DNA of 13,598 bases from Candidatus Sigynarchaeum calidifontis (GTDB lineage: Archaea; Asgardarchaeota; Lokiarchaeia; Sigyniarchaeales; Sigyniarchaeaceae), in assembly GCA_030587475.2 (NCBI GenBank), contig JAUQYZ020000123.1:1-13598 (forward strand). The letters run 5' to 3'. Position numbers and translations under genes: made by a program. Below, piece after piece: positions 68 through 13,274 of this stretch (positions within the stretch are counted from its first letter, which is position 1; every line of letters begins with the position of its first letter). The notes under the pieces are model-generated. The model searched no databases, was not told the DNA's origin, and saw nothing but the letters and a program-made list of their open reading frames with translations.

Positions 68-1414
68 ATGTCTACAACAAACGTTAACGGGAAGCGCCTG
101 GCAACGTCTCCCGAGCGAATGAAGGTTCCAAATAAGAATTGGCGTGACGACGTAATAAACGTTGCGGATCGATGCGCGAAAGCATATCATTTCCGTCGGA
201 AACTTGATGGGCTTAAGCACAAGGCCATCGCCTTTTGGGAGGTCATCGTGTTTGGCGTGTTGTTCGGCCTAGGGACAGCGGATGCGGCAAACAAGTTGAA
301 TAAAATCAAGATCGCAGATGCGAACAAGGATAAGCGGCGGAAGAAGGTCAATCGTGAACTGGCAGGTCGCTACGTGCGCCATGAGAGGCTAGTTCCGGAC
401 AAATCGCAGGTCAACGACTTCAAGCGGAAGCTACCCGAGTGGTTCGTGAGAAACCTGGAGCTTCACGTGCTCAAGGCGCAAGTGGATTACTTGTTGGGTT
501 GCAAGATGCTTCCCAAGACCGTTGACGTCATCATCGACTTCAACGACAAGGCGTATTATGGCAAGTTGAAGAAGGAGGAGAGCAAGACGCTGATCGGCTC
601 AAACAAAGCCCCTGGAACCACGCGGGTGCGTAAGTTTCTCGGGGTCATGATCAAGGCGGGACAGCTCCGCGTGTTCACCCATATCAACTTGATCCACAAA
701 AGCGTCCACCACGACGAGTTCGTGAAGAAAGCGCTTGGTGACCTGTTCGTCTGGGGGTTCAACATTCGGAGAGTGCTTGCGGACAGGTGGTTCGCGAACA
801 GGGGCGTGCTGGAGTGGTGCCAAGCCCGGGACATCGAATATATCGGCCCGTTCCACAAGCGAAGTAATGTTATCAAGCATATACACGCGTTTTTAAAGAC
901 CGGAACGCGCATCGTGTTCCCATTCTTGATCCAAGGAGAACTTGCACGTTACAAGGGTCAACCGCCAATGCAAGCGTGGCTGTTTTTAGCGACACGAGAA
1001 AAGAAGCGTTTATCTGGCATCCGCCACCAATATCTGAAAAAGAAGATAACGCTTGCCGAAGCCACGAAGAAAATACACGTTTTCGTTGTCACGACGCAAC
1101 CGCCTGCAAACAAACGGCAGCGGGCAGCATGGCTCCGGGAGCTTGCCAGGTATTATAAACATCGCTGGTTCATCGAGACGGCATTTCTCGACCTTGACCG
1201 CATCAAGCCGACGTGCCACGCGCGCACGGATGGAGCGAAAATCTTTTGCATCACGATGCGATGTTGGCTCTATAATGCGTGGCAAATCGAGCGGGAACGG
1301 AGACGACGGCTACGACGGGTGCCAGCGTCTGTGCGGCATGGCCCCACATTAACGGAGTTTTGCGACACGGTGTTCGAGACGAACTTCGGCGTCTCGTGTA
1401 TTGTCCTGGCATAA
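68..1414 (+). CDS. DDE transposase, ISH3 family (IS4 superfamily)
   Basis: 448 aa, basic. Motifs IIDFNDKAYYG (first Asp, ISH3-like D..YYG), VLADRWF (second Asp) and YKHRWFIETAF (Y-x2-R-x3-E signature with catalytic Glu). Lies between the IRs. Confidence 0.9.
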   Translation: MSTTNVNGKRLATSPERMKVPNKNWRDDVINVADRCAKAYHFRRKLDGLKHKAIAFWEVIVFGVLFGLGTADAANKLNKIKIADANKDKRRKKVNRELAGRYVRHERLVPDKSQVNDFKRKLPEWFVRNLELHVLKAQVDYLLGCKMLPKTVDVIIDFNDKAYYGKLKKEESKTLIGSNKAPGTTRVRKFLGVMIKAGQLRVFTHINLIHKSVHHDEFVKKALGDLFVWGFNIRRVLADRWFANRGVLEWCQARDIEYIGPFHKRSNVIKHIHAFLKTGTRIVFPFLIQGELARYKGQPPMQAWLFLATREKKRLSGIRHQYLKKKITLAEATKKIHVFVVTTQPPANKRQRAAWLRELARYYKHRWFIETAFLDLDRIKPTCHARTDGAKIFCITMRCWLYNAWQIERERRRRLRRVPASVRHGPTLTEFCDTVFETNFGVSCIVLA

Positions 1415-9085: not shown

Positions 9086-9233
9086 GCTCTTCACGTGGGG
9101 GAGATGTACATGCAATCTCGATTTTTTTTTTGGATATAGGCGTGTATCTTTCATGTAACCTTGTTGGATATTTTTATTTGGTAAACCGGGTATTAATGTA
9201 GATGACCAGTCCAAGGTAATCGGGGAATTTCGC
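9086..9233. promoter_or_regulatory. Divergent AT-rich intergenic/promoter region with a T10 tract
   Basis: T10 at 9122-9131, plus ATATTTTTATTT and TATTAAT, between divergent starts at 9085(-) and 9234(+). Confidence 0.4.
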
Positions 9234-9761
9234 ATGAAGATCAGCTCGATAAAAATCGTGATACGAAGCGATAATAAAGCGGCCATCTCTGAATTTATCC
9301 GGCGAATACCGGGACGGGTATACACAGATGAAACAACTGCACAGATAATCGGCGCTGACTTCACGCTCTCGGAACGCGAAGCCGGCGACGGAGCGATACA
9401 TCTATACATCTGGATCGTTAACAACCACCCGTCTTTCTCGCCGTTGCGCCAGCATTACTTGCAAGGTGCAAAAATACATGCCATGTTCATAGATGCAAGC
9501 AACCCCGAAAGCATCCAGCAAGTTGCCGAATGGAAGGCCGAAGCTGGCGAGGTTATGGAGGAGGCAACAGGCATGATCGTTGCCACTAACATCAACAAGG
9601 TTCCGGACAACGTGAAGGTGGAAGAGAAAATCGGCGAGCTGGCTCTGCATCTCGGTCTCGAGGCAGTGCTCGTCTCGACCGAGACAGAGGCGGACTACGC
9701 GGCTGCCATCAAGACGTTTCTGGAACGGGTTGACCGAATTGCAATGGCTTCTTGCACTTGA
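9234..9761 (+). CDS. Rab/Ras-fold small GTPase-like protein with degenerate G motifs (pseudo-GTPase)
   Basis: 175 aa, aligns in register with the GTPase domain at 12105-12610: KIVIRSDNKAAISEFIRR vs KIIVIGDPSVGKTSLILR; IIGADF; WIVNNHPSFSPLRQHYLQGA vs WDIAGQAKFNTFRKGFYNGA; IDASNPESIQQVAEW vs FDLTNLETFKNVKAW; LALHLGLEAVLVST vs LAKELGCDVLLTSA. Confidence 0.78.
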   Translation: MKISSIKIVIRSDNKAAISEFIRRIPGRVYTDETTAQIIGADFTLSEREAGDGAIHLYIWIVNNHPSFSPLRQHYLQGAKIHAMFIDASNPESIQQVAEWKAEAGEVMEEATGMIVATNINKVPDNVKVEEKIGELALHLGLEAVLVSTETEADYAAAIKTFLERVDRIAMASCT

Positions 9762-9965: not shown

Positions 9966-11171
9966 TCACGCGGTAAAACGATACGCGAGGCGCTTGAGTG
10001 CCTCCAGCAGCACGACGCTGGCAAGTCCCAAGGCAATCATCAACGCGGTTGTTATTGCCGCTCCCAAAGGTTCGATTATGGAGAGGTTCCAGAACATAGA
10101 TCCAAAGATATTGAAGGCCAGGATCATTACAATGAAGTGTCGATGGGTATGCAAGACGAGGCCAACGGCGTCGAGGGCAAGTAGCGTGATGGAGCACGAA
10201 AACCAACCGACAAGGGGCAGGCCCGCCGCGAGGAGCAAGAACTGCGCGGGATCGGCGACGCGGCACGCGATGATCGCGGTGCTCGCGGCCAGGATGGCCA
10301 AGAAAAGGGCTCCGGAGACCGCTTGCTTGGCAGCTAGCAACCGTCGGGTGAACCGCGGGAGCGCCAGGAAGCAAGGGGCAATGCCATCCCCCGCGCCAGA
10401 CACGGCCGACGAGATGAAGAACGGCAAGAAGCCCGTGAGGATGTATAGCCAGAAAAACGCGAAGACCGGGTCAGACACCTGGACGGAGAAGCCCGCGAGG
10501 ATGATGGCGGCCGTGGCAACGACCGGTGCAAGCAACGTGGCGAGATTCCTCGCGTCCTTGAACAAGACCTCCATGAGAGACCGCCCGATGTTCCAGGCCG
10601 GCGAGCTGGGCCAGATGCGTATCATCGTTTCCTGAACGTCCCGGCCCGGCGCTTTGGGATTGAGCTTGATCACGGCAAGCGCGAGAACTTGCGACAAGCC
10701 CGCGGGCAACGCGGCTACCAGGATGCTAGATACGACGGCCAGGATACAATATGCTGCGCCAGGCTGGGTGATAGACAGTGCGATCGCCGCCAGCACGGGG
10801 AACGTGGCCGATGGAATGGCGGTTGCCATGGTGATCGCCCCACCGATCGAACGCTCCACCGTACGCGTGGGAAGCGGCATCGACGAGAGAAACGATCGGA
10901 TGCACGGCTTGCGCGCCTGGCCGGCAGCCGAGATGGCCAGGAGGGTCAAGAACGCGGCTTGGATGCCAAGAAACGCGACAAAGTTGTTCCCGAGCGCGAG
11001 GACCAGCGCCCCCGCCGTCGCGGTCACGCACGCGAGTGCGATGGACGCGGTATTCCCTCCTGGGCTGCCTGGTTTTCCGTGCGTGCCCTCCTTGAACCGC
11101 GATTCGGCGAGCACGGCCCTGGCAAGCTGCCACGTCACGTGATCCGGCCGAACCGTTCCATTCACGATCAT
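9966..11171 (-). CDS. ABC-2-type exporter membrane subunit (multi-pass permease)
   Basis: 401 aa, very hydrophobic with about 10 TM segments in two halves. Starts 6 bp after the ABC ATPase stop. Confidence 0.72.
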   Translation of the reverse strand: MIVNGTVRPDHVTWQLARAVLAESRFKEGTHGKPGSPGGNTASIALACVTATAGALVLALGNNFVAFLGIQAAFLTLLAISAAGQARKPCIRSFLSSMPLPTRTVERSIGGAITMATAIPSATFPVLAAIALSITQPGAAYCILAVVSSILVAALPAGLSQVLALAVIKLNPKAPGRDVQETMIRIWPSSPAWNIGRSLMEVLFKDARNLATLLAPVVATAAIILAGFSVQVSDPVFAFFWLYILTGFLPFFISSAVSGAGDGIAPCFLALPRFTRRLLAAKQAVSGALFLAILAASTAIIACRVADPAQFLLLAAGLPLVGWFSCSITLLALDAVGLVLHTHRHFIVMILAFNIFGSMFWNLSIIEPLGAAITTALMIALGLASVVLLEALKRLAYRFTA

Positions 11172-11177
11172 CCGCGA

Positions 11178-11987
11178 TCACCCGCCTCTGCCTGGTAGAA
11201 TGCCTTGTAGTGCCTTGAACTTATTGTGGGCATCGATGACACTCTTTTCGTCCCCGGTCAAGCTCAAGAACAGGCCCTCCAATTCCATCCCCTCGGCGTG
11301 GGCTCGATTGCGTAGTTGATCTACCGAGCCCTCCGCCACGAGCTTTCCCTTGTTGATGACACCGATCCGATTGCAGATGGACTCTGCCTCGTCGATCACG
11401 TGTGTAGAGAGCACGACAGCGTGGCCGCTGCCCGCCATGGTCCCGAGCATGTCCTTCACGAGGTGTCGCGTGCGGACGTCCAGCCCGGTTAGCGGCTCGT
11501 CGAGGACGAGGACTGCCGGATCGTGGAGCAGCGCGGCGACGATCTGGATCTTCTGTTGATTCCCCTTGCTCAACATCGCGATCGGGGTCTTGTAATACTT
11601 CACGGCATCGAGTACCTTGAGCAGATCGCGTGCCCGGCGCGTCGCGATAGTGGAGTCTAGCCGCCTCACGGACGCGACGAGCGAGAGCAGCCGGGCCGGG
11701 GTCATCGACCGGAAGACGTCGGGCTCCTCGGGCACGTAACCCACGATGGCCTTGACCCGCGCCGGGTCCTTCGCTGGATCGTGACCGTTCACGTTGATCG
11801 TACCCTCATCCGGCTTGAGAAGGCCCGCGATGCACTTGAGCAGCGTGGACTTGCCCGCGCCATTCGGGCCGAGCAAGCCGTAGATCTCGCCCGGGCGGGC
11901 CTCGATGCTCACGCCGTCGATTGCCGGGACGAGCCCATACCGCTTGACGAGGTCCTTGACGATGATACCGGTCGGGGTCGCTGCCAT
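11178..11987 (-). CDS. ABC transporter ATP-binding protein (ABC-2 / multidrug-type exporter)
   Basis: Walker A GPNGAGKST, GYVPE loop, signature LSKGNQQK, Walker B VLVLDEPLTGLD, H-loop LSTH, C-terminal LEGLFLSLT. Confidence 0.95.
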   Translation of the reverse strand: MAATPTGIIVKDLVKRYGLVPAIDGVSIEARPGEIYGLLGPNGAGKSTLLKCIAGLLKPDEGTINVNGHDPAKDPARVKAIVGYVPEEPDVFRSMTPARLLSLVASVRRLDSTIATRRARDLLKVLDAVKYYKTPIAMLSKGNQQKIQIVAALLHDPAVLVLDEPLTGLDVRTRHLVKDMLGTMAGSGHAVVLSTHVIDEAESICNRIGVINKGKLVAEGSVDQLRNRAHAEGMELEGLFLSLTGDEKSVIDAHNKFKALQGILPGRGG

Positions 11988-12104: not shown

Positions 12105-13136
12105 TCACGCGAGGGACTTGAATATCTTCGCGGCGAGGTCGGTGAATGCCTGGTCCACGTGCTCGCCCGTGAGCGCTGACGTGAGAAGCACGTCGCAGCC
12201 CAGTTCCTTGGCGAGGGCCTGGATGTCGTCGTCAGGAACAACCCGCTTGTCCTTGAGATCAAGCTTGTTCCCGAGGATGTAACAAGGCATCTTGCCGATG
12301 GCAGAGATGGCATCGTTGTACCATGCCTTGACGTTCTTGAAGGTTTCCAGGTTCGTGAGGTCGAAGGCCACGATGATGCCACGAGCACCATTATAGAAGC
12401 CCTTCCTGAACGTGTTGAACTTGGCCTGTCCTGCTATGTCCCACAAGACCAGCTTGGCCTTTTTCTTGCTCGCGAAAGTAACCTCCTTCTCGGTCAAGTT
12501 CGTGCCGATCGTGGGGAGATATGTCTGGCGAAAGGCATGATCGGTGTACCGGAGGATGAGCGAGGTCTTCCCGACGCTCGGATCGCCGATGACGATGATC
12601 TTGAAGGCGTACTCGGCATCCCTCGACTTGCCAGTGACTTGTGACTCGTCGGGGAACGCGACATCGCCCCGTTGGCCGAGCTCTTGCGAGCGCAGCTCCT
12701 CGATCCGGCGGGTCATGGCGCCGTGGAAGGCAGCGAGGAGCGCGGGTTCCACGGGCTGCTTGCTCTCCTCCCGCTGGGCGATCCTTTTCGCGTATTCGTC
12801 GAAAATCGGCTGGAAATCGGGGAGATACTTGTAAATCACAGCGTCGCCCTCCTCGCCGATGACGAGGGAGAGCGTGGATTCGCCTTGATGGCCACGAGAC
12901 GCGTGATCCCGGTACTTGATGCAGCGGACGACGATCTTCGCCGAGCCGTCGGGCACCGGGATGATGGCGACCTTTTCCGGCACCTCGTCTGCGCCGAACG
13001 AGATGTTCATGGACGCGATGGCCGCCTTTTCAAGGAGCTCCTTTGGCGACGCCAGCGGGTGCCAGCACGCGGGAACGGGGCCGGCACGCTGGTCAAACTT
13101 CGAATACAAGACGGAGATGAGGACGGTCGAGCTCAT
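12105..13136 (-). CDS. Rab-like small GTPase fused to an N-terminal uDENN/longin-like domain
   Basis: C-terminal domain has G1 GDPSVGKT (12564-12587), G2 YLPTIG, G3 WDIAGQ, FYNGA, G4 GNKLD and G5 TSAL. The N-terminal ~150 aa begin VLYSKFDQRAGPVPACWHP, the F-D/H-x3-G-P-x6-P start typical of uDENN/NPRL2-like longin domains. Start placed at ATG 13136 (343 aa). No C-terminal prenylation Cys. Confidence 0.9.
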   Translation of the reverse strand: MSSTVLISVLYSKFDQRAGPVPACWHPLASPKELLEKAAIASMNISFGADEVPEKVAIIPVPDGSAKIVVRCIKYRDHASRGHQGESTLSLVIGEEGDAVIYKYLPDFQPIFDEYAKRIAQREESKQPVEPALLAAFHGAMTRRIEELRSQELGQRGDVAFPDESQVTGKSRDAEYAFKIIVIGDPSVGKTSLILRYTDHAFRQTYLPTIGTNLTEKEVTFASKKKAKLVLWDIAGQAKFNTFRKGFYNGARGIIVAFDLTNLETFKNVKAWYNDAISAIGKMPCYILGNKLDLKDKRVVPDDDIQALAKELGCDVLLTSALTGEHVDQAFTDLAAKIFKSLA

Positions 13137-13274
13137 AGGGGGTACCGCTGGCGGGCTGTTATCTAATGCAAGCTCGTCGTGGAAGGTAATGAATTTTCGC
13201 AACGTCGCTCGTGGCGAACGACCCCATGTGAAGTTTTTAGGCGTGCGTTATCCAGAGCTCTGTAGGATTACCGA

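Follow-up and report, generated by a model that had tools for sequence, protein, structure and literature searches.

It was concluded that a gene of Candidatus Sigynarchaeum calidifontis encodes a GAP-type longin domain tethered to its likely client, a Rab-like G domain, and this conclusion is well supported. The gene was located on the minus strand of the window, i.e., the whole stretch of 13,598 nucleotides that was analyzed. It is plausible that the protein is a candidate built-in GAP acting in cis or in trans, with dimerization, docking and GAP catalysis as the presumed steps. We proposed a two-domain switch, in which GAP-class longins would pair and Arg81 (R81) would speed the GTP hydrolysis of the fused G domain; this reading was given a rough probability of 0.45.

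The gene and its longin domain

The list of open reading frames and the translation gave a protein of 343 amino acids plus a stop codon (P0001), read on the minus strand from an ATG at 13136 to the stop at 12105-12107. Residues 1-157 formed an N-terminal domain, which was connected by a linker of 18 residues to a complete Rab-like G domain (residues 176-343). All peptides quoted in the original prediction were found in the translation, namely the N-terminus VLYSKFDQRAGPVPACWHP, IKYRDHASRGHQGESTLSLV and WDIAGQ, and the codon of R81 was placed correctly at 12894-12896. The features discussed below were as follows.

12105-13136, minus strand: whole coding sequence of P0001 (open reading frame list and translation; start backed by the homologue alignment)
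12666-13136, minus strand: longin domain, residues 1-157 (AlphaFold2 pLDDT 90.6, pTM 0.84; longin matches by Foldseek and VIA-align)
13077-13082, minus strand: GP motif, G19-P20, at the start of strand 2 (G in 103/109 and P in 101/109 relatives)
12891-12908, minus strand: D77-H-A-S-R81-G82 in the β4-β5 loop, candidate arginine finger (AlphaFold2, alignment of 109 relatives, weak Folliculin matches)
12825-12833, minus strand: Y102-K103-Y104 after strand 5, nearly invariant (107/109, 102/109 and 102/109)
12612-12665, minus strand: polar linker, residues 158-175, of lower pLDDT, with conserved F161-P162 at 12651-12656 (F in 101/109, P in 97/109)
12108-12611, minus strand: Rab-like G domain, residues 176-343 (PF00071, E 1.9e-44; 7ezb, E 9.5e-35)
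12564-12587, minus strand: P-loop GDPSVGKT, with Pro186 at the Ras Gly12 position (Pro in 98/109)
12510-12512, minus strand: switch I Thr209, preceded by Pro208 (alignment to 7ezb; PMC10933270)
12426-12440, minus strand: G3/switch II DIAGQ with the catalytic Gln237 (Q in 104/109)
12258-12269, minus strand: G4 motif NKLD (family alignment and translation)
12171-12179, minus strand: G5 motif SAL (family alignment and translation)

An in-frame TTG at 13202 could add 22 residues upstream of the ATG; the position of the ATG coincided in the alignment with the start of 15 close homologues. As judged from the letters only, the A/T-rich ATTAGATA, located ~25-33 nt upstream of the start, would suit an archaeal TATA box, and the start would then be near-leaderless. 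The source names of the homologues were Lokiarchaeota, Lokiarchaeia and Sigynarchaeum.

The N-terminal domain was searched by phmmer against 1.84 billion cluster representatives, and 86 clusters (50% identity) were matched. Most of these were 340-350 amino acids long and had a P-loop near residue 185, i.e., the same fused architecture as in P0001. Since 86 clusters matched the N-terminal domain alone and intact frames of ~350 amino acids occurred in 128 of the 301 Asgard genomes searched, P0001 is a real gene rather than a chance open reading frame.

The structure of residues 1-170 was modeled by AlphaFold2 from an 83-row alignment (A4) with a pLDDT of 90.6 and a pTM of 0.84. The full-length model, built from a shallow alignment of 16 close homologues, reached a pLDDT of 51 and was unusable. 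The modeled domain contained strands β1 (6-15), β2 (19-26), β3 (57-60), β4 (66-76) and β5 (84-94), helix α1 (32-43) and further helices at 95-103, 105-124 and 131-157. The predicted topology, β-β-α-β-β-β-α-α, is with confidence that of a longin fold, as had been anticipated for this domain.

The top Foldseek match was 8yqg, the longin part of a Roadblock-Longin protein from Lokiarchaeota, followed by chains of GATOR1, Lst4, the SEA complex, FLCN-FNIP2 and C9orf72-SMCR8; the longins of DENND1, roadblock, AP sigma and SNARE proteins were ranked below these GAP-complex chains. VIA-align superposed 8yqg with a Z of 17.9 and an rmsd of 2.1 Å over 137 residues. Z values of 13.1-13.6, 12.5, 11.5-11.9 and 11.9 were obtained for the chains of the FLCN-FNIP2 complex, C9orf72-SMCR8 (6lt0_C), GATOR1 and Lst4, respectively, where the entries were titled by complex and the identity of a chain as FLCN or FNIP2, and as NPRL2 or NPRL3, was inferred from its length. 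Lower values were recorded for Ykt6 (10.8), Sec22b (9.2), roadblock (~9.1) and TRAPP (~8.9). Hence, the closest solved folds past the archaeal longin belonged to the FLCN-FNIP2, C9orf72-SMCR8 and GATOR1 complexes, the same group to which the domain had been likened in the original prediction.

At the level of sequence, no match was returned by a Pfam and NCBIfam scan of residues 1-170 of P0001, and none at E<=1 by PF11704, PF06218 and PF15019 (Folliculin, NPR2 and C9orf72). A profile of the N-terminal domain detected 8yqg among the PDB sequences at an E of 5e-7 (HMMER); profiles A2 and A5 reached only 8yqg and none of FLCN, NPRL2 and SMCR8. PF11704 was matched at E<=0.1 by 5 of the 83 family members, and one relative without a GTPase domain, P0063, scored 24.5 bits, above the curated cut-off of 23.3. 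These weak matches of relatives always spanned the β4-loop-β5-α2 region, and model position ~61 fell on the arginines of P0029 (R82) and P0063 (R86). In the ESM Atlas, all leads were below 0.9, and NPR2 was found on 19% of the members in one cluster.

The GP motif and the candidate arginine finger

In the AlphaFold2 model, R81 was found in the hairpin loop between strands 66-76 (β4) and 84-94 (β5). The finger of NPRL2 is taken to be R78. The same loop is the place of known fingers: SMCR8 R147 lies in the longin βL4-βL5 loop and is equivalent to FLCN R164 (Tang et al., 10.1101/2020.04.16.045708), and SMCR8 R147 points at BeF3 in ARF1 (Su et al., PMC8213707). A second element, the GP motif, was described by Novak Vanclova, Jackson and Dacks in 2025 for SMCR8, C9orf72, FLCN and NPRL2, where it opens strand 2; it adjoins the finger, is lacking in FNIP2, NPRL3 and longins other than GAPs, and occurs together with the arginine finger in some Asgard longins (PMC12290439).

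The conservation of both elements was examined in 109 full-length relatives, many of which were only 20-40% identical. The D-x3-R-G pattern, on which the original prediction was built, turned out to be kept family-wide: R81 was present in 101 sequences and replaced by Lys in 3, and G82 and D77 were retained in 104 and 93, respectively. Non-conservative losses of R81 were observed in 5 of the 109 relatives, and in four of them (P0071, P0078, P0084 and P0090) the GP motif was lost as well; the GP motif was missing despite R81 in one sequence only. The losses of R81 and GP fell at at least three separate places in a quick ML tree. Such joint loss fits a single functional site composed of GP and R81.

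The G domain was intact in P0071, P0078, P0084 and the own-genome paralogue L005, all of which had lost R81. In L005 (C198:9853-10890, minus strand), the finger arginine was changed to Pro (...SSAPGK...), while the GP motif and the G domain were intact. It may be that L005 acts as a non-catalytic partner subunit.

The Rab-like G domain and the distribution of the fusion

The G domain matched TIGR00231 (NCBIfam) in addition to PF00071, and its best solved relatives were the Thorarchaeota Rab 7ezb (E 9.5e-35) and Rab1A/B (E about 1e-34). All of the motifs G1-G5 were intact (GDPSVGKT, T209, DIAGQ, NKLD and SAL). Thus the domain is complete and Rab-like and keeps its catalytic Gln, as had been stated at the outset. 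The Gtr1/RagA model PF04670 scored P0001 with only E 0.19 and 11.5 bits, below the cut-off of 22, and therefore the domain was regarded as Rab-like and not Rag-like. No prenylatable Cys was found at the C-terminus, which reads ...KIFKSLA. In the alignment to 7ezb, switch I Arg37 of Thor-Rab, the equivalent of the intrinsic arginine of MglA (PMC10933270), corresponded to Pro208; hence the MglA-type built-in arginine is absent from P0001.

The own genome (4.99 Mb, 89% complete) contained 56 Ras-like open reading frames. A P-loop of the form GDP-x-VGKT, in which Pro takes the place of Ras Gly12, was present in 6/6 fused paralogues and in 1 of the ~50 other Ras-like frames. In Ras, the arginine finger of the GAP passes the Gly12 position, and the family-specific Pro186 is therefore suggestive of co-adaptation. 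The conserved F161-P162 of the linker may dock the tether.

The profile of the N-terminal domain matched 128 of the 301 Asgard-phylum genomes searched. Strong matches of ~350 amino acids were limited to the own order (f2, 68/68; f3, 7/7) and the own class (f4 and f5). The fused family was present in 2-9 copies per genome, six in the own genome. Same-strand tandem pairs, 1.2-4.3 kb apart, were observed in at least 21 genomes; in the loci examined, the partners were of two distinct subtypes, and GP and the arginine were usually kept in both. The pairs in genomes of the own order included L008, L011, L013, L017, L020, L022, L025, L026, L027 and L031. Subtype 1 was marked by YIER...RRGG and WDIAGQ, and subtype 2 by YIKW...RRGG and WDIGGQ. 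The two subtypes may be heterodimer partners.

Longins with GP and [DN]-x3-R-G-G were also found in five genomes of other Asgard families, none of them joined to a G domain, and the relatives P0047, P0058, P0063 and P0085 were likewise GP/R-G longins without a G domain. When 41 genomes of another class were compared with the full-length profile, its best 150 matches covered the G-domain half only. GP/R-G longins that stand alone therefore occur throughout the phylum, in agreement with PMC12290439, whereas among the genomes searched the Rab-like fusion was confined to Lokiarchaeia-level lineages. The fusion therefore looks derived. Hence, the suggestion that P0001 is a single-chain forerunner of GATOR1, FLCN and C9orf72-SMCR8 is not supported; as the fusion looks lineage-restricted, it says by itself nothing on the ancestry of the eukaryotic complexes.

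Several other architectures were recorded. P0030, a relative of 525 amino acids, combined the longin and a Rab-like G domain with a TIR domain at the C-terminus (PF13676, E 7e-19), which hints that the switch may be used in signaling or defence. A longer architecture of 471-504 amino acids, found in many genomes, carried a related longin at its N-terminus (E about 1e-26). The own genome encoded one such frame of 496 amino acids (C209:67005-68492, minus strand), which gave the sole, weak PF11704 match there (E 0.127). Frames of 2985-3684 amino acids in another Asgard family (G102:C1, C4 and C17; L048) also held a GP/R-G longin. A TBC RabGAP domain (PF00566) was not found in the own 89%-complete genome, and the control genomes gave no match either.

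The neighboring genes of the window were inspected as well. The region 9966-11987 of the same strand as the GTPase gene carried, downstream of that gene, an ABC ATPase gene (11178-11987), separated from the GTPase gene by 117 nt, and a 401-residue open reading frame without a Pfam match. The order of GTPase, ABC ATPase and permease was kept in a same-genus genome (L050), which at 83% identity is too close to inform; the zinc-finger open reading frame was not found upstream of the GTPase gene in that genome. An open reading frame at 9159-9758 (plus strand) was matched by the family G-domain HMM (E 2e-14), had neither a P-loop nor DxxG, and was considered a putative pseudo-GTPase. A DDE transposase frame (PF01609) was located at the left end of the window (68-1414, plus strand).

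Known systems, proposed mechanism and its alternatives

The P0001 longin shares with the catalytic longins of FLCN, NPRL2 and SMCR8 the fold, the GP at the β1-β2 turn and an Arg-Gly in the β4-β5 loop with an Asp four residues before it, and the complexes of these proteins were its best eukaryotic structural matches. The C-terminal DENN domain of FLCN and SMCR8, or the C-domain of NPRL2, is absent from P0001, and a Rab-like G domain is found there instead. Further, the clients of the eukaryotic proteins, Rag or Arf, are separately encoded, whereas the G domain of P0001 is fused. The eukaryotic longin-GAP complexes are asymmetric heterodimers with one finger; in contrast, the arginine was usually present in both members of the tandem pairs.

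The Asgard longins of the FLCN/SMCR8 type (PMC12290439) carry the same motif pair and belong to the same fold class as the longin of P0001, which differs in being covalently joined to a Rab-like G domain; a fusion is not mentioned in that paper, and ArfR or Rag/Gtr as clients were posed there as a question. Fusions of longin or roadblock domains to small GTPases in one polypeptide of Lokiarchaeia resemble P0001, and Asgard longin-GTPase fusions were already published (Liu et al., 10.1101/2020.10.19.343400; Tran et al. 2024, PMC10933270); RB or longin domains are carried by 26 of the 74 GTPase-related sequences of MK-D1 (PMC10933270). The published fused class was described as Rag/Arf-like, with the finger and GP unmentioned (PMC10933270; 10.1101/2020.10.19.343400), whereas the G domain of P0001 is Rab-like. 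A full-text literature search returned no paper that joined both threads or described the Rab-like fused family. Each part is thus known, and the new element is the combination of a GP/arginine longin with a fused Rab-like G domain. The extent of the earlier work had been understated in the original prediction.

Two further systems were compared. The nearest solved structure, 8yqg, is detectable by sequence and has GP; it differs from P0001 by a Pro-Glu at the aligned position of the arginine loop and by fusion to a roadblock rather than a GTPase. Rag/Gtr and MglA-MglB resemble the family in combining a Ras-like G domain with a dimer of the roadblock/longin superfamily, dimerization being presumed for P0001, and in having paralogue pairs encoded side by side. 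The order of domains is reversed: the roadblock of Rag/Gtr follows the G domain, whereas the longin of P0001 is N-terminal.

The proposed reaction sequence would start with the pairing of two longins, identical or paralogous, as in FLCN-FNIP2, NPRL2-NPRL3 and C9orf72-SMCR8. Such dimerization is expected because eukaryotic GAP longins act as dimers cupping the GTPase, 8yqg is dimeric, and the SMCR8 longin on its own is inactive and requires a partner longin (10.1101/2020.04.16.045708). The longin pair would cradle one G domain, and R81, placed in its loop beside the GP turn, would enter the nucleotide pocket next to Gln237. The arginine would then accelerate the GTP hydrolysis of a fused G domain, either its own (cis) or that of the partner (trans). 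That the family forms a self-contained longin-GAP/Rab switch, in which a homodimer or a paralogue heterodimer would hydrolyze the GTP bound to the Rab-like domain tethered to it, is a tentative proposal to which somewhat less than even odds were given. The members that lack R81 and keep an intact G domain count against a built-in GAP, and a GAP that is always tethered would call for additional regulation.

It is also conceivable, but unlikely, that the longin serves mainly as a dimerization or platform module, like the Rag roadblocks, or as a GEF- or effector-like nucleotide sensor of the kind seen in DENN, TRAPP, Mon1-Ccz1 and SRX-SRβ; R81 would then have a structural role or bind a different ligand. 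Platforms built from longin or roadblock domains are mostly GEFs or scaffolds (PMC10933270), the tandem paralogue pairs recall the RagA/C heterodimers, and the dimeric 8yqg has GP and no arginine at the aligned loop position. However, the joint conservation and loss of GP and R81 is a signature reported as specific for GAP longins and absent from GEF and scaffold longins (PMC12290439), and chains of the FLCN, SMCR8 and NPRL2 complexes outscored the SNARE, TRAPP and roadblock folds.

Slightly more doubtful is an external client, i.e., that the GP/arginine site of the longin acts on another, separately encoded small GTPase, with the fused Rab-like domain as a switch for regulation or targeting that sets when or where this GAP is active. 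Longins of the GP/R-G kind also stand apart from any G domain, in other architectures and lineages, so that the site is able to work on a separate partner; the ~50 other Ras-like frames of the own genome and the intact G domain of some members without R81 are in keeping with this. Nevertheless, fused domains are usually direct partners, Pro186, specific to the family, suggests a change of the fused active site along with the fusion, and no candidate was linked by gene order. Finally, it is extremely improbable that D-x3-R-G resembles the FLCN/SMCR8 finger by coincidence and belongs to an ordinary N-terminal extension: P0001 has no significant Pfam match to a longin GAP, yet this explanation was contradicted by the confident AlphaFold2 longin fold, the VIA-align neighbors, the retention of R81 in 93% of the relatives (20-40% identity) and the occurrence of the motif in Asgard longins that stand alone.

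From gene order, it is hard to assign GAPs or GEFs to Asgard GTPases (Tran et al., PMC10933270). The fused family links the Asgard longin-GTPase fusions and the GP/Arg longins covalently, and the fusion nominates Rab-like GTPases as likely clients of the candidate Asgard longin GAPs. Additionally, P0001 is a small, soluble, single-gene test system, far simpler than the multi-subunit eukaryotic complexes. If the switch driven by R81 is true, Rab-like GTPases would be clients of Asgard GAP longins, the pairing of a longin GAP with a GTPase would have existed in archaea, and the P-loop Pro at the Ras Gly12 position would have been adapted to that pairing.
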